In this document: positions 6,280 through 12,290 of the stretch, one piece after another
How the letters are laid out: every line of letters starts with the position of its first letter
Numbering within the stretch: position 1 is the stretch's first letter
Origin: a virus
Taxonomy: Duplodnaviria > Heunggongvirae > Uroviricota > Caudoviricetes
Length of the DNA: 13,662 nt
Direction: 5' to 3' (one strand)
Virus record (IMG/VR): IMGVR_UViG_2617271086_000006
Program-made: the position numbers and the translations under genes
The notes under the pieces: model-generated
What the model saw: the letters and a program-made list of their open reading frames with translations, nothing else
Told to the model about the DNA's origin: nothing
The model's database searches: none

Positions 6280-6642
6280 TTAACGACCTGCTGCGCGGAG
6301 TTTTCCGTCAGGTTCACCGGCAAGAGTCAGTAATTGTCCTTGGTCTTCCTGCAGAATAGTCAGGCGACCACCGCGATTGACATACATCGGCGTTTCGGTG
6401 GTGTCTTCTTCGGAAATTTTCCCGCGGTTAGTCGGGCGAACATATGAGAGTTTGTGTTTGATTTTTACACGGTTCTCATCAAACGGTTCGATTTCCAGGT
6501 TGAGCGAGACCTTACCTTTGGTTTTCGTGTTCATCACACCGGAAGCGACTTCACTGAGAACAGCGCCGATTTTGGTTTCAAATACGCCGCCGTCCAGCTC
6601 CCCGATAAATGCCTGCACATCAGTACTGCGTTCGCTAGCCAT
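6280..6642 (-). CDS. YfdP-like small protein (120 aa), first gene of the leftward operon
   Basis: The track ORF (182 aa, TTG-initiated) is trimmed to the internal ATG at 6642 (MASERSTDVQ...), which is preceded by GAGGAG at 8 nt. Resulting length 120 aa. Confidence 0.8.
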   Translation of the reverse strand: MASERSTDVQAFIGELDGGVFETKIGAVLSEVASGVMNTKTKGKVSLNLEIEPFDENRVKIKHKLSYVRPTNRGKISEEDTTETPMYVNRGGRLTILQEDQGQLLTLAGEPDGKLRAAGR

Positions 6643-6779
6643 TTTGCTGCTCCTCATCATATCGACCCCGCAAGGTCGGTTGGTTTCTCCACAAAACAGA
6701 GAAGAACACCAGCGGTGGCAGCCGCCCGGATGGATTGGGTTATGAGCCCGTCGTCCGGTGATGCCCTTCTCTGTTTTGT

Positions 6780-6825
6780 AAAAAGAGCGGTACCAGCCGG
6801 AAGCAAGTGTACAAACTGGTACCGC
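6780..6825 (-). terminator. Stem-loop plus U-tract in the PL leader (tL-like terminator candidate)
   Basis: Perfect 10-bp inverted repeat GCGGTACCAG (6787-6796) / CTGGTACCGC (6816-6825) with a 19-nt loop containing TGTACA. On the minus strand it is followed by UCUUUUUACAAAAC, which also resembles a boxA motif (CGCTCTTTTTA). Confidence 0.4.
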
Positions 6826-7320
6826 CAAAGCAGTGGCTGTTGTGGTGACCGGTGCTGATCTCCGGCTTGCGGTTATTTCAGACTCTCACGGGCGTTTAAT
6901 TGCCCCGCCGAACAGCTCTTTTCCGCAATAGCTGCAATGTCTTTCGCGCATCAGCCTGCGCATTCACCACAACGCTGAGAGCATTGCCGGTGTCCGAATC
7001 GAACGGACCTTTTCCCTGCCCAACCCTCCCATCTGAATGGGACTGTCTGGAATTGAACCAGCACTTATGCCTTGCTCGTCAATGCTCTCATCGTTGCGTC
7101 CTGGTCTCTTCCCAAGCGTCAAACCGAATCGCCACGCTGGTTAGGCGTCTTATCAGCATCCTCATTGACTTGCACATTCCGGCTACCTGGTTTGTTTGCC
7201 CGAGCAAGGAGTGGATTATCCCCTTTAACGTCCCCAGACCGCTAACGACGCATGTGCCATACGCCGTGTTACAACCAAATTTTGTTTGAATCTTGCCTGC
7301 CTCATGTTTCTTTTGGATAC

Positions 7321-7348
7321 ATTATGTATCTCATAGGTACATTGTCAA
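7321..7348 (-). promoter_or_regulatory. Putative PL promoter with embedded operator OL
   Basis: Minus-strand -35 TTGACA (plus 7343-7348), 16-nt spacer, -10 CATAAT (plus 7321-7326). The spacer and -10 are overlapped by an operator-like site TGTATC-N5-GGTACA (7325-7341). Confidence 0.5.
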
Positions 7349-7352
7349 GTAT

Positions 7353-7375
7353 AAAAAAACCTGCCGAAGCAGGTT
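7353..7375 (-). terminator. Rho-independent terminator downstream of the cI-like gene
   Basis: Minus strand reads AACCUGC-UUCG-GCAGGUU followed by U-run (plus-strand A-run 7353-7359), 13 nt after the cI stop at 7388-7390. Confidence 0.6.
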
Positions 7376-7387
7376 CATAAATATTGA

Positions 7388-8062
7388 TTAGGCCTTTATT
7401 GTGTATCTTCTTGGTTTTCCCGAGAAAATCACTGTACCAATTATAGAGCAATTACCGTTAATCTTAATGTAAGGCTCAGGCCAGTTTGGGTTTAATGCTT
7501 TGAGATAACGCTGTGTTCCATCTTCTATCAACCGCTTGAAGGTGGTTTCGCCTGAATCGTGCATCAATGCAATAACGTCGTCACCGTGGCAGGCAGGGAC
7601 TTCAGGATCAACAAAAATCATGTCTCCCGGGCGGTACTCATCAATCATTGAATCACCAATCACCCGCAAGATATAAGTCATTTCGCCACAGGGTACAGGG
7701 CAGGGATAAGTTTCTGCTGTGCTCAAATCAACCTCAGAATAGCCAACTTCTTTCCATGCTCCGGCCTGTACCCATGATATGACAGGGACTAACGTTATTT
7801 GTTTGTTAGTGATTGAAACATCAGGTTTTTTTGTGATGTTCGTGGTCTGGTGTTCTTGATCAAGCCATCCGACAGGCAGGTCGAAACATTTTTCGATGTG
7901 CCTTGCCATGCTGTCACCGATATTTTTAGTAGCACCATCTCCCATAAACCTGCTGGTCTGGGTTGGCTCGCGATCAATCATGGTGGCAAAGGAAGAATTC
8001 CCGCCAACACCATCTCTCAGTTTTCTGGCGTTAGACCGCCGGATGTCATGGACTGTTTTCAT
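7388..8062 (-). CDS. cI: CI-type prophage repressor (N-terminal HTH, C-terminal S24 LexA-like autopeptidase)
   Basis: 224-aa ORF. Ala-Gly autocleavage site (VQAGAW), Ser nucleophile motif GDSM and Lys in TFKRL. Divergent from the cro-like gene. No Shine-Dalgarno sequence close to the ATG, so the mRNA may be leaderless as for lambda PRM. Confidence 0.9.
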   Translation of the reverse strand: MKTVHDIRRSNARKLRDGVGGNSSFATMIDREPTQTSRFMGDGATKNIGDSMARHIEKCFDLPVGWLDQEHQTTNITKKPDVSITNKQITLVPVISWVQAGAWKEVGYSEVDLSTAETYPCPVPCGEMTYILRVIGDSMIDEYRPGDMIFVDPEVPACHGDDVIALMHDSGETTFKRLIEDGTQRYLKALNPNWPEPYIKINGNCSIIGTVIFSGKPRRYTIKA

Positions 8063-8078
8063 AACGAAATTAAAACCT

Positions 8079-8097
8079 TTGTACCGATAGGGTACAA
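8079..8097. promoter_or_regulatory. Operator-like palindrome OR-a (TTGTACC-gatag-GGTACAA)
   Basis: Perfect 7-bp inverted repeat with 5-bp spacer, 17 nt upstream of the cI start, in the cI/cro intergenic region. Confidence 0.5.
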
Positions 8098-8102
8098 GTA
8101 TC

Positions 8103-8130
8103 TTGAAGGTTCATCTCAATCATGTAATAT
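8103..8130 (+). promoter_or_regulatory. Putative PR promoter for the cro-like operon
   Basis: -35 TTGAAG (8103-8108), 16-nt spacer, -10 TAATAT (8125-8130), followed by a second operator-like site TGTATA-tcgga-GGTACA (8130-8146) over the predicted transcription start. Confidence 0.5.
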
Positions 8131-8146
8131 GTATATCGGAGGTACA
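8130..8146. promoter_or_regulatory. Operator-like site OR-b (TGTATA-N5-GGTACA)
   Basis: Same half-site pattern as OR-a and OL, lying between the PR -10 and the cro Shine-Dalgarno sequence. Confidence 0.45.
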
Positions 8147-8152
8147 TATTGT

Positions 8153-8353
8153 ATGAAAGCGTATTGGGACTCTTTAACCAAAGAACAGCAGGGCGAGTTG
8201 GCCGGAAAAGTTGGCTCAACACCAGGCTATTTACGGCTGGTTTTCAATGGTTATAAAAAAGCCAGTTTTGTGCTGGCTAAAAAACTTGAGCAATGCACGT
8301 CAGGTGCAATTACGAAATCTGACTTAAGACCGGATATCTATCCGAAAGATTAA
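8153..8353 (+). CDS. Cro-like small HTH regulator (YdaS-like Cro/CI family)
   Basis: Trimmed from track ORF 7850..8353 to ATG 8153 (MKAYWDSLTKEQQGELAGKVGSTPGYL...), 66 aa, with GGAGG 10 nt upstream. C-terminal DLRPDIYPK resembles YdaS-type Cro proteins. Divergent from cI. Confidence 0.75.
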   Translation: MKAYWDSLTKEQQGELAGKVGSTPGYLRLVFNGYKKASFVLAKKLEQCTSGAITKSDLRPDIYPKD

Positions 8354-8384
8354 CAGAACACCTTCAATTTTTAACCACAGAACG

Positions 8385-8948
8385 ATGAGGCTAACCGTGG
8401 GTAAGCATCACTGGAAAGTAGAAAAACAGCCTGAGTGGTACGTGAAAGCTGTCAGAAAAACTATCGCGGCGTTGCCGGGGGGGTACGCTGAAGCTGCTGA
8501 GTGGCTAGATGTAACAGAGAACGCTTTATTCAACCGCCTTCGTGCAGATGGCGATCAGATTTTCCCGCTGGGATGGGCAATGATTTTACAGCGCGCGGCT
8601 GGCACTCACTACATTGCGGATGCTGTCGCACAGTCTGCTGGTGGGGTGTTTGTATCGCTTCCTGAAATTGAGGAAGTAGAGAACGCCGATATAAACCAGC
8701 GCCTGCTGGAAGTCATCGAACAGATCGGGAGTTACTCAAAGCAGATTCGTTCGGCAATCGAAGATGGGGTAGTGGAGCCACACGAGCAGACAGCAATTAA
8801 TGATGAGTTGTATCTGTCAATTTCGAAGCTCCAGGAGCATGCAGCACTGGTCTACAAAATCTTTTGCGCTCCAGAAAAGAGTGACGCCCGCGAGTGTGCA
8901 GCTCCGGGCGTCGTGGCGTTTTGTGTCTGTGGAGAAACTAACGCATGA
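8385..8948 (+). CDS. CII-like early regulatory protein (possibly YdaT family)
   Basis: 187-aa ORF immediately downstream of the cro-like gene. Family assignment is positional and from weak recollection. GTG 8397 with a GAGG Shine-Dalgarno-like sequence is an alternative start. Confidence 0.55.
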   Translation: MRLTVGKHHWKVEKQPEWYVKAVRKTIAALPGGYAEAAEWLDVTENALFNRLRADGDQIFPLGWAMILQRAAGTHYIADAVAQSAGGVFVSLPEIEEVENADINQRLLEVIEQIGSYSKQIRSAIEDGVVEPHEQTAINDELYLSISKLQEHAALVYKIFCAPEKSDARECAAPGVVAFCVCGETNA

Positions 8949-9544
8949 ACAGTTTAACGGCAAATAACCGTTTGTCGCAACAGCTGGTGGTCAGCGTCGC
9001 TGAACACCTGTTGTTACGGCATGAATGCAGATTACCAAATCTCCTGGCTGTAAGTAACCACAGAGAACTTTACCTGACTGTGGGGGGCGAGTTGTGCAGG
9101 AACTTAACCGCTGGTTTCGTGACGGAAGAGGACTTTATGTTCATGTTATTCGTTGGGAGCCAGAAACACAGCGCGTTATCTATCTTCGCAAAGACTACCC
9201 GCATGAGTGCTTTAGTCCTTTGTGGAAATTCAAGCGTGATTTTGTTGAGTGTGAAGGACCACCAGCACATTGATTCTGCCATTCCGGGACGTTACACTGT
9301 TCAGGCACCTTATAAAGCGGGTGCCGGGATTGGCGTCCTGGAATTGATCAAGGCGATATATGACGCGCCAGCGTCTTTTTTATCGTCCGCATTTGCTCAC
9401 ATCAAAGTTATGGTGGGCTGGGCGGGGGCATCGAAAGATGCGCCGGTTTCCTTGATCACCGGTTACGCCAACCCCGTTCAGTTCACCACCAGCGAAATTG
9501 GCGTTTCCGGTGGTGGAAGTGGAACAAACCAGCCCATGAACTGA
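8945..9544 (+). CDS. Hypothetical protein (199 aa)
   Basis: Long ORF coupled to the upstream gene by an ATGA overlap (8945-8948). No recognised motif. A shorter protein-like reading (about 58 aa from GTG 9094) exists in another frame. Confidence 0.5.
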   Translation: MNSLTANNRLSQQLVVSVAEHLLLRHECRLPNLLAVSNHRELYLTVGGELCRNLTAGFVTEEDFMFMLFVGSQKHSALSIFAKTTRMSALVLCGNSSVILLSVKDHQHIDSAIPGRYTVQAPYKAGAGIGVLELIKAIYDAPASFLSSAFAHIKVMVGWAGASKDAPVSLITGYANPVQFTTSEIGVSGGGSGTNQPMN

Positions 9545-11357: not shown

Positions 11358-11967
11358 TAAATATTGCCAGGAGCTGGTGGAACTGCATCAGTGGCGCACG
11401 CCGGACAACATTTTCTGGGGAATTAACACCCTGTTTGGTCCGTTTGTTCTGGATCTGTTCACTGACGGTGATAACGCCAAATGCGCTGCGTATTACACGG
11501 CGGAAGACAACGCGCTGGCGCATGACTGGTCAGAACGCCTTGCGGAGCTTAAAGGTGCTGCCTTTGGAAATCCCCCATACAGCCGCGCCAGTCAGCATGA
11601 GGGGCAATACATCACCGGCATGCGTTACATCATGAAGCATGCCAGTGCCATGCGTGATAAGGGCGGGCGCTATGTTTTCCTGATCAAAGCTGCCACCAGC
11701 GAAGTGTGGTGGCCGGAAGATGCAGATCATATTGCTTTTATTCGCGGGCGTATTGGTTTTGAACTGCCTGCCTGGTTTATCCCGAAGGATGAGAAGCAGG
11801 TGCCGACAGGCGCTTTCTTCGCTGGTGCTATTGCTGTTTTCGACAAGACCTGGAAGGGACCGGCAATCAGCTATATCGGGCGCGATGAACTTGAGGCATG
11901 TGGTGAGGCGTTTCTGGCGCAGGTTCGCCTGCAGGCGGAAAAGCTGGTCAGGGAGATGGCGGCATGA
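11350..11967 (+). CDS. Phage Dam-like DNA N6-adenine methyltransferase
   Basis: Trimmed to ATG 11350 (MSNKYCQELVELHQW...), 205 aa. Catalytic motif GNPPYS. Overlaps the upstream gene by 8 nt and the downstream gene by ATGA. Confidence 0.85.
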   Translation: MSNKYCQELVELHQWRTPDNIFWGINTLFGPFVLDLFTDGDNAKCAAYYTAEDNALAHDWSERLAELKGAAFGNPPYSRASQHEGQYITGMRYIMKHASAMRDKGGRYVFLIKAATSEVWWPEDADHIAFIRGRIGFELPAWFIPKDEKQVPTGAFFAGAIAVFDKTWKGPAISYIGRDELEACGEAFLAQVRLQAEKLVREMAA

Positions 11968-12290
11968 CGACGTTAACTCAATGCCAGCAGCAGGTGCTGG
12001 ATATGCTGATTTCTTATCAGAAAGAGCGTGGCTTCCCGCCAACCAATCAGGAGGTGGCAACCATGCTGGGATACCGTTCGGTGAATGCAGCGGTGGAGCA
12101 TCTTCGCGCACTGGAGAAAAAAGGCGTCATCACGATAAAGCGTGGTGTGGCCCGGGGGATCACGCTTCATACCGCGGTGAAGGACGACGACAGCGAGGCG
12201 GTCGGGATTATCCGCTCACTGCTTGCCGGTGAGGAAAACGCAAGGCTGCGTGCAACTCACTGGTTACATGAGAGAGGCCTGAAAGTATGA
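11964..12290 (+). CDS. LexA N-terminal DNA-binding-domain-like protein lacking the S24 peptidase domain
   Basis: 108-aa ORF. Aligns by eye with E. coli LexA residues 1-70 (QQQVLDMLISYQKERGFPPTNQEVATMLGYRSVNAAVEHLRALEKKGVITI against [51 protein letters not shown]). ATGA overlaps at both ends. Confidence 0.8.
   Translation: MTTLTQCQQQVLDMLISYQKERGFPPTNQEVATMLGYRSVNAAVEHLRALEKKGVITIKRGVARGITLHTAVKDDDSEAVGIIRSLLAGEENARLRATHWLHERGLKV

Follow-up and report, generated by a model that had tools for sequence, protein, structure and literature searches.

Five conserved operator-like sites in the predicted lysis-lysogeny switch of an e14/SfV-type lambdoid prophage

Known relatives of the immunity region described here include the e14 element of Escherichia coli K-12, with its genes ymfK (cohE) and ymfT (croE), and the phages SfV and SfIV. 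Published work indicates that e14 is SOS-inducible but LexA-independent and is connected with the SfiC phenotype (bioRxiv 10.1101/2020.11.19.390815), that activity of its module is seen in oxidative stress and in fur mutants, and that its genes are co-induced with sulA and recN (PMC10602906, PMC12132413). As to the regulators, a transcription factor survey gives YmfK only as an 'SOS-sensitive repressor', without sites (PMC8249747), and the SfIV genome paper says no more than that CI and Cro equal those of SfV. The SfV GenBank record (U82619.2) carries a 'putative operator region' at 26377-26445, which is an OR block only, without individual sites, OL sites, PRM or PL. For YmfK/CohE, CroE and SfV CI, the searchable literature yielded no footprint, EMSA, ChIP or gSELEX peak; the supplement of the Reg-Seq preprint contained no footprints for ymfT, ymfJ or ymfK, and a search with the motif words TGTACC/GGTACA together with repressor and prophage returned nothing relevant.

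The window, by which we mean the whole analysed stretch of 13,662 nucleotides, appears to be a full-length prophage adjoining yjjG, whereas e14 is a remnant in icd. Judged from its sequence, the stretch at 7321-8152 is very probably a lambdoid prophage's lysis-lysogeny switch, with immunity of the e14/SfV type. Positions 7290-8160 showed 95.4% nucleotide identity to ymfK(cohE)/ymfT(croE) of K-12 e14 and 100% to ETEC-2265, and positions 7200-8400 were 96-99% identical to the SfV, SfIV, cdtI, 2H10, Ayreon and Stx2c phages, the CI proteins of which are 98.7-100% identical to the one encoded here. For SfV the identity of CI is 99.1%, its OR region is identical over 116 aligned columns, and its annotated operator region corresponds to 8079-8147 of the window, exactly from the site originally called OR-a to the one called OR-b (OR3 and OR1 below). 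Homology to SfV and SfIV starts exactly at 7305, the edge of the OL2 site, and the sequence to the left of OL2, below 7305, is unrelated between the window and e14. A module of the e14/SfV type was found in 1324 of 5426 complete E. coli genomes, about one quarter. The original prediction had proposed that the operator motif defines an immunity specificity for this phage; the specificity is not new, being that of the widespread e14/SfV type, nor is it confined to one phage, as its half-site is common to relatives as distant as Pseudomonas. The operator finding is real and had been read in the right way, but with an incomplete list of sites, and it is essentially already known; the operator map reveals no new mechanism.

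In the switch, the repressor and cro genes point away from each other across a 90-bp intergenic region with three operator sites, an arrangement kept in 33 related loci. The cI-like gene (7388-8062, minus strand) encodes a LexA/S24-type repressor of 224 aa that is the orthologue of e14 YmfK/CohE and SfV CI, and the cro-like gene (8153-8353, plus strand), the first of the PR operon, encodes a YdaS/HTH_3-like protein of 66 aa orthologous to e14 YmfT/CroE. The C-terminal half of the repressor is an S24 peptidase domain (PF00717, E 2e-26, residues 93-212), with sequence matches to the structures of the lambda CI C-terminal domain, UmuD' and LexA. In the alignment to lambda CI 101-229, its VQAG (VQA100-G101), GDSM (Ser138) and TFKRL (Lys176) fall on lambda VQAG, GNSM and TFKK and match the lambda cleavage site, Ser149 and Lys192; the repressor would hence be cleaved at Ala100-Gly101 by a Ser138/Lys176 dyad. 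The N-terminal domain has no detectable sequence similarity to that of lambda CI, and residues 1-75 gave no Pfam HTH match even at E 10. The Rep repressor of the Salmonella phage SPC32H, which an antirepressor inactivates, is not known to carry an S24 domain. Its structure (PDB 5d50) is the only solved one with detectable similarity to the N-terminal 75 residues, which weakly matched both it (E 8e-4) and a phage CI N-terminal domain; the putative recognition helices differ, being REPTQTSRFMG in the window and RSQNLVNRWCT in SPC32H Rep.

Three operator-like sites had been noticed originally, at 7325-7341, 8079-8097 and 8130-8146, and all three are present. The list was incomplete, since five sites are conserved and those at 7305-7321 (OL2) and 8097-8113 (OR2) had been missed. 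OL1 (formerly OL, 7325-7341) reads TGTACC-tatga-GATACA on the minus strand and TGTATC-tcata-GGTACA on the plus strand, and, as had been described, it lies over the spacer and -10 of the leftward promoter PL, filling the former and overlapping the latter by 2 nt. OL2 (7305-7321, minus strand), detected by a relaxed scan, reads TGTATC-caaaa-GAAACA and departs from the palindrome at 3 positions. The PL -10 ends on the first T of this site, which spans the predicted PL start. On the right side, OR3 (formerly OR-a, 8080-8096) is a perfect palindrome, TGTACC-gatag-GGTACA, which extends to TTGTACC-gatag-GGTACAA at 8079-8097. Because it covers the -35 and spacer of the likely PRM, we infer that OR3 is an autorepression site like lambda OR3 and not an activating one. 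OR2 (8097-8113), AGTATC-ttgaa-GGTTCA, emerged from the relaxed scan and the comparison with related loci; it is weak, with 9/12 matches, contains the PR -35, and has its centre at -43 from the PRM start. OR1 (formerly OR-b, 8130-8146), TGTATA-tcgga-GGTACA, had been placed over the PR start, and it does cover the predicted start, sharing its first base with the end of the PR -10 hexamer and enclosing the cro Shine-Dalgarno sequence GGAGG (8138-8142). The spacer and right half of OR1 are also constrained by this overlapping Shine-Dalgarno sequence.

Both early promoters are predicted ones, with predicted starts at about 8137 (plus strand) and about 7314 (minus strand). PL (7321-7348, minus strand), identified by a promoter scan, has the -35 TTGACA (7348-7343), a 16-nt spacer and the -10 CATAAT (7326-7321), agreeing with the consensus at 11/12 positions. 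Its TTGACA occurs at the same place in about 30 loci, and the Ayreon record annotates a promoter there. Immediately upstream of PL lies the intrinsic terminator of the cI transcript (7357-7376, minus strand; 8-bp stem and T-run, -11.6 kcal/mol), a position at which the SfV and Ayreon records also annotate a terminator. The likely PR (8103-8130, plus strand) was read from the sequence as -35 TTGAAG (8103-8108), a 16-nt spacer and -10 TAATAT (8125-8130); it matches the consensus at 8/12 positions and scored under the threshold of the promoter scan. In most related loci a -35 of the form TTGNNG (TTGAAG, TTGTAG, TTGATG, TTGCAG, TTGCGG or TTGACG) stands together with a -10 at the same place. The likely PRM (8069-8097, minus strand), read in the same manner, comprises -35 TTGTAC (8097-8092), a 17-nt spacer and -10 TTTAAT (8074-8069). 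The PR and PRM hexamers are modest (8/12; -35 only 3/6). For the uninduced K-12 lysogen, the printed stretch of a published table of transcription start sites contains no PR or PL start (PMC4681348).

The proposal that cI lacks a nearby Shine-Dalgarno sequence and is translated from a leaderless PRM transcript was confirmed on the first count and supported on the second. The only purine-rich match is AAGG, ending 13 nt before the ATG, which is no usable Shine-Dalgarno sequence, while the PRM -10 lies 6 nt from the A of the ATG (8062), so that this A would be +1. In nearly all of the 33 loci the ATG is preceded at 6-7 nt by an xxxAAT hexamer, and no Shine-Dalgarno sequence is conserved among them. 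Moreover, the mRNA of the K-12 orthologue ymfK has been found experimentally to be leaderless, with a dRNA-seq start site (RVS_(I)-1202156) and a leader length of 0 (PMC4681348 Table S3), and the window is identical to K-12 from the PRM -10 through the ATG. A leaderless PRM mRNA as the source of cI is therefore supported by the sequence together with the published K-12 start site.

The pattern TGTAYN6GGTACA matched 3 times in the 13.7 kb, at OL1, OR3 and OR1 only, with 0.01 matches expected per window and 0 of 200 dinucleotide shuffles reaching 3, although this expectation concerns a pattern derived post hoc from the same three sites and the independent test is the comparison across related loci. 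This comparison covered 33 distinct loci from Enterobacterales, Halomonadaceae and Pseudomonas, with repressors 41-99% identical. Relative to the repressor ATG, sites stand at about -84, -51 and -34 in all 33, and most Enterobacterales loci also have the terminator, TTGACA, OL1 and OL2 just after the repressor gene. At the OL2 position most of the latter read TGTACC-N5-G(A/C)AACA or GATACA, 20 bp centre to centre from OL1. The half-sites TGTACC/GGTACA are fixed in position and the 5-bp spacer is free to vary; at OR3 the half-sites hold 1.4-2.0 bits and the spacer 0.2-0.5 bits. In these loci, 17-mers with at least 10/12 half-site matches numbered 126 in 5,775 positions of the operator zones versus 7 in 94,977 positions elsewhere. 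OR2 is kept as TGAACC-N5-GGTACT in Enterobacterales and as TGTACC-gtcaa-GGTTCT in Pseudomonas and Salinicola; since it overlaps the PR -35, this may in part reflect constraint on the promoter. All five sites are present in K-12 e14, which differs from the window in the OR3 spacer (GTTAA instead of GATAG), the left half of OR1 (TGTACA instead of TGTATA) and the right half of OL2 (GGTACA instead of GATACA); SfV OL2, TGTTTC-tcttg-GGTACA, is a better match than that of the window. Thus, comparing the motif with the operators of related repressors, as the original prediction had suggested, returned the same half-sites at the same positions, and gene identities, promoter geometry and phylogenetic footprinting agree with the proposed control of both early promoters and autoregulation.

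Cro is co-conserved with the N-terminal domain of the repressor and with the sites in nearly all of the loci; therefore, comparison alone cannot separate CI from Cro. Were Cro (YmfT/CroE) or some other factor the main occupant of the sites, the CI-like protein would use a different, unnoticed sequence; the missing Pfam HTH match in the CI N-terminal domain and the 'croE operon' target assigned to CroE by the survey (PMC8249747) would fit such an arrangement. We regard it as improbable, however, given that the two promoter regions contain no other repeated motif, that the sites flank cI on both sides, with OL directly after the cI terminator and OR3 over the likely PRM, and that the putative recognition helix of CI, DREPTQxSR, is near-invariant wherever the half-site is kept, being conserved along with the sites as is the Cro motif GYLRLV. 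Moreover, no characterised lambdoid switch is known in which CI and Cro use separate operators.

The palindromes, OR3 in particular, might instead act as RNA or DNA hairpins, OR3 being a small terminator or attenuator of leftward read-through into cI; indeed, a terminator scan picked out a 7-bp stem with a T-rich tail after it at 8097-8079 (minus strand), and the RNA fold of this site has about -9 to -10 kcal/mol. Yet among 27 distinct OR3 sequences 0 pairs were changed on both sides and 11/162 cells had unpaired changes, measures not above those of shuffles, and a PRM transcript starting at the ATG would not include the hairpin. It is also the same half-site sequence, and not mere complementarity, that recurs at five places including non-palindromic ones. 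The lack of covariation largely refutes the hairpin or terminator reading, which we hold to be very unlikely; since the half-site positions are kept with no compensatory changes, the conserved feature is a protein site rather than a hairpin. An Rfam scan of the window gave no match in 7300-8160 at the gathering threshold.

That the sites are host LexA (SOS) boxes through which the prophage is induced directly can be practically dismissed: e14 genes are SOS-inducible and the TGTATAT of OR1 resembles half of an E. coli SOS box, but CTGT-N8-ACAG with at most 1 mismatch is absent from 7300-8160 and is at chance level window-wide, the geometry of the sites is TGTA-N9-TACA, and LexA, according to the literature, does not repress the e14 SfiC phenotype (bioRxiv 10.1101/2020.11.19.390815).

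The repeated 17-bp sites are almost certainly binding sites of the CI-like repressor, the YmfK/CohE orthologue, which would bind as a dimer to operators made of the inverted half-sites TGTACC and GGTACA with 5 unspecified bases between them. OL1, in the PL spacer, and OL2, at the PL start, would jointly silence the leftward early operon, and OR1, which covers the PR start as well as the ribosome-binding site of cro, would together with the weak OR2 at the PR -35 silence cro and the rightward operon. The OR2 centre, at -43 from the cI start, is at the position from which lambda CI activates PRM, and the repressor may activate PRM likewise. In the presumed order of occupancy, OR3, over the PRM -35 and spacer, would mediate repression of cI at high repressor levels. 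The leaderless cI mRNA would run from the A of the ATG to the terminator just before PL. Upon DNA damage, RecA-stimulated self-cleavage at Ala100-Gly101 through Ser138/Lys176 would remove the repressor, after which Cro, co-conserved with the sites, may occupy the same operators. The map also points to loss of YmfK/CohE repression at OL and OR, more than to an activator role of YmfT, as the basis of the K-12 'YmfT iModulon'.

This organisation resembles that of lambda in the divergent cI and cro genes, the 17-bp operators with two-fold symmetry, the three OR sites, the middle one overlapping the PR -35 with its centre about 42-43 bp from the PRM start and the cI-proximal one overlapping PRM, the leaderless cI mRNA, and the S24 autocleavage domain with the conserved Ala-Gly, Ser and Lys. 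However, the operator sequence is unrelated to that of lambda, and OL has two recognisable sites here against three in lambda. Measured between centres, neighbouring OR sites are 33 and 17 bp apart and the two OL sites 20 bp, as compared to 23-24 bp in lambda. The OR1 site, which in lambda lies over the -10, is here downstream of the -10 and covers +1 and the cro Shine-Dalgarno sequence. Unlike in lambda, there is no rexAB, and cI has a terminator of its own just before PL. The OR2-OR3 distance of 17 bp, about 1.6 helical turns, is also unlike lambda, and lambda-style cooperativity can therefore not simply be assumed.

The five-site map and its consensus apply to an immunity type that occurs in K-12 (e14), in Shigella serotype-converting phages and in phages encoding Stx2c or Cdt, and could be used, with modest practical value, in prophage annotation, in predicting superinfection immunity and in designing reporters or inducible mutants. 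TGTACC-N5-GGTACA is kept together with the DREPTQxSR-type CI N-terminal domain and a YdaS-like Cro in prophages of Enterobacterales, Halomonadaceae and Pseudomonas, a specificity group within which repressor identity falls to about 41%. These sequences raise the prospect, to which we give somewhat less than an even chance, that the repressors are interchangeable and form an unusually old and broad immunity group. If so, there would be cross-immunity between very different phages, for example with e14 giving K-12 protection from SfV, cdtI and Stx2c-converting phages, and the group would depart from the rapid diversification that lambdoid immunity specificities usually show. A possible cause is that the half-site would be constrained by the cro ribosome-binding site lying within OR1.

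Three operator-like sites had been predicted in this region, and direct reading of 6900-8700 confirmed OL1 (TGTATC-tcata-GGTACA) at 7325-7341 and OR1 (TGTATA-tcgga-GGTACA) at 8130-8146; OR3 (TTGTACC-gatag-GGTACAA) is likewise present, at 8079-8097, as a perfect palindrome with a 17-bp core at 8080-8096. The pattern TGTAYN6GGTACA had no matches beyond these three in the 13.7-kb window, where 0.01 are expected by chance. Allowing up to 3 mismatches to TGTACC-N5-GGTACA gave 10 matches in the window versus 3.4 expected, and two of the extra ones, OL2 at 7305-7321 and OR2 at 8097-8113, adjoin the reported sites. Centre-to-centre spacings are 20 bp for OL1-OL2 (about 2 helical turns), 17 bp for OR2-OR3 (about 1.6 turns) and 33 bp for OR1-OR2 (about 3 turns). 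The reading of these sites as operators is supported and extended by this analysis, and we regard a model of putative repressor binding here, together with a leaderless cI, as very probably correct. Our literature search found no direct binding data for YmfK or CroE, the e14 orthologues of the repressor and Cro.

The sites were compared across related loci. A tblastn search against phage records gave three more distant relatives, namely Hafnia phage yong2 and Edwardsiella phage EPP-1, with CI proteins 80% and 75% identical to that of the window, and a Pseudomonas phage sharing the N-terminal domain alone (58% over residues 1-71). With these proteins aligned as the query, a scan of a single genome from each species yielded 31 prophage loci from Enterobacterales, Salinicola/Halomonas and Pseudomonas, with repressors 41-99% identical to the window's. 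Three sites were found in all 33 distinct intergenic regions, at positions near -84, -51 and -34 relative to the repressor ATG. OR1 reads TGTACC-tccNN-NGTACA, its spacer and adjacent half-site base being the complement of the cro Shine-Dalgarno GGAGG; OR2 reads TGAACC-N5-GGTACT or TGTACC-gtcaa-GGTTCT, with the PR -35 in its spacer; and OR3 reads TGTACC-N5-GGTACA, with 1.4-2.0 bits in half-site columns versus 0.2-0.5 bits in the five spacer columns (33 loci). On the 3' side of the repressor stop, most Enterobacterales loci carry in succession a terminator, TTGACA, A, OL1 (TGTACC-N5-GNTACA), TAA and OL2 (TGTACC-N5-G(A/C)AACA or GATACA). In the zones 5' and 3' of the repressor, 126 of 5,775 positions began a 17-mer with at least 10 of 12 half-site matches, versus 7 of 94,977 elsewhere in the loci. 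Conserved together with the sites are DREPTQxSR in the repressor and GYLRLV/YLRQV in Cro. The Salinicola, Halomonas and Pseudomonas loci have no OL directly after the repressor gene; single 11/12 matches occur in L031, L032, L035 and L036 at +1596, +1815, +1449 and +898 from the repressor ATG, and such matches 0.9-1.8 kb downstream may be relocated OL equivalents.

OR3 was also flagged as a hairpin by a terminator scan, with an RNA fold of about -9 kcal/mol. A structural role is countered by the 27 distinct OR3 sequences, in which two-sided pair changes were absent and one-sided changes broke 11 of 162 pair cells; covariation measures for OR3 were no higher than in shuffles. What is conserved is the sequence itself: it turns up five times, not always as a palindrome, and this fits a dimeric DNA-binding protein.

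The promoters overlap these putative operators. PL, on the minus strand, has a -35 TTGACA (7348-7343) and a -10 CATAAT (7326-7321), matching consensus at 11 of 12 positions; OL1 fills its 16-nt spacer, while OL2 opens on the final T of the -10, spanning the predicted start. The likely PR (-35 TTGAAG, 8103-8108; 16-nt spacer; -10 TAATAT, 8125-8130) scores 8/12, below the scan threshold; its -35 is contained in OR2, and OR1 begins at the last T of its -10. The likely PRM, read from sequence on the minus strand, consists of TTGTAC (8097-8092), a 17-nt spacer and TTTAAT (8074-8069), followed after 6 nt by the cI ATG at 8062. With PRM +1 set at 8062, the centres of OR3, OR2 and OR1 lie at -26 (over the -35 and spacer), -43 and -76.

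The predicted leaderless cI is supported by K-12 data. In the differential RNA-seq map of transcription starts by Romero et al. 2014 (PMC4681348, Table S3), ymfK is one of five leaderless E. coli mRNAs (RVS_(I)-1202156, leader length 0), and, as the window and K-12 share every base between the start of the -10 and the end of the cI ATG, the result transfers to the window. In nearly all 33 loci an xxxAAT hexamer stands 6-7 nt 5' of the repressor ATG, the 6 nt between being variable, and Shine-Dalgarno-like words at usable distance are almost absent. In the excerpt of the K-12 start table that we consulted, no forward start falls between 1200691 and 1207102, nor is there a reverse start where PL lies (PMC4681348), as expected, within that excerpt, for repressed PR and PL.

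The switch is functionally lambda-type. The 224-aa repressor (7388-8062, minus strand) carries an S24 peptidase domain spanning residues 93-212 (E 2e-26) and aligns with lambda CI 101-229, so that VQA100-G101, GDS138M and TFK176R align with the lambda cleavage site, Ser149 and Lys192. Its N-terminal 75 residues matched no Pfam model, and their sole structural relative by sequence is SPC32H Rep (5d50), a weak match. Domain matches on the plus strand identify a YdaS/HTH_3-like Cro of 66 aa (8153-8353) and a CII(CP76)-like protein (8385-8948). OR2 lies at -43 from the PRM start in the window and at about -42 in lambda. The switch differs from that of lambda in its unrelated operator sequence, two-site OL, site spacings, OR1 placed over +1 and the cro Shine-Dalgarno, and lack of rex genes.

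Published K-12 physiology accords with this arrangement. The e14 division inhibitor SfiC/ymfM is SOS-inducible without LexA control, and its regulation is thought to be by the CI-like CohE (bioRxiv 10.1101/2020.11.19.390815). One expression module groups the leftward e14 genes intE, xisE, ymfH and ymfJ and the rightward ymfT, ymfL, ymfM and ymfN with sulA and recN, excludes ymfK, and is most active in fur mutants and oxidatively stressed cells (PMC10602906, PMC12132413). This composition and SOS behaviour are what would be expected if a RecA-sensitive repressor worked at OL and OR alike. A transcription factor survey enters YmfK merely as 'SOS-sensitive repressor' and gives 'croE operon' as the CroE target (PMC8249747). 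The operator map suggests a simpler reading of the K-12 'YmfT iModulon': it would reflect the cleavage of YmfK/CohE in the SOS response, and YmfT (Cro) would be no more than the first gene to be derepressed.

The region is of the e14/SfV immunity type. Across window 7200-8400, identity to the cI-cro regions of SfV, SfIV, cdtI phage, 2H10, Ayreon and several Stx2c-converting phages is 96-99%. The stretch 7290-8160 shows 95.4% identity to ymfK/ymfT of the K-12 prophage e14 and 100% identity to ETEC-2265, whose element is a prophage adjoining yjjG; of 5426 complete E. coli genomes, 1324 carry this stretch. The homology to SfV/SfIV begins at 7305, where OL2 has its outer edge, and this boundary is the one expected were OL2 part of the immunity module. 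In the SfV GenBank record, 26377-26445 bears the label 'putative operator region'; it corresponds to window 8079-8147, precisely OR3 to OR1. The Ayreon record places a promoter and a terminator where PL lies. The type is widely distributed, with cI, cro and a putative operator region already annotated and a repressor mRNA experimentally leaderless. We add the explicit 17-bp consensus, OL2 and OR2, the PRM geometry and a half-site conserved down to about 41% repressor identity and across three bacterial orders, some of which may have been published before.

Several other elements were also observed. Matches at Rfam gathering level to isrK Hfq-binding RNA (9305-9381, plus strand, 64 bits) and C4 antisense RNA (9406-9493, plus strand, 82 bits) lie inside ORF 8945-9544, of the Pfam Ash family and equivalent to SfV orf37, annotated 'immunity region'; here lies a second immunity element, RNA-based and P1/P7 c4-like, at about 1.2 kb to the right of cI/cro. 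A 108-aa ORF (11964-12290, plus strand) between DNA methyltransferase and RusA genes, has an ETEC-2265 counterpart labelled 'LexA family transcriptional regulator', which makes it a second, small gene of the LexA family, located within the replication/nin region. On the downstream side of PL, some 620 nt (about 6700-7320, minus strand) hold short ORFs only and no annotated gene, the first leftward one being yfdP (ETEC-2265 record; roughly 6337-6699 by offset); as homology to e14, SfV and SfIV ends at 7305 going leftward, this long PL leader belongs to another piece of the mosaic. In many related prophages (L006-L016 and L020), a conserved stretch ...ACAGGCAGGACGCCCACGAAGTAGCCGCC...GGATGATTCG lies 15-90 nt 3' of OL2 at the PL transcript start and may be a structured leader or nut-like element; the window retains its first few bases only (GAGGCAGGCAAG). 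In Hafnia phage yong2 (L003, about 2370-2445), a putative tRNA-like GGTGTAGCTCAGTTGGTAGAGC... was seen by eye directly 3' of PL/OL.
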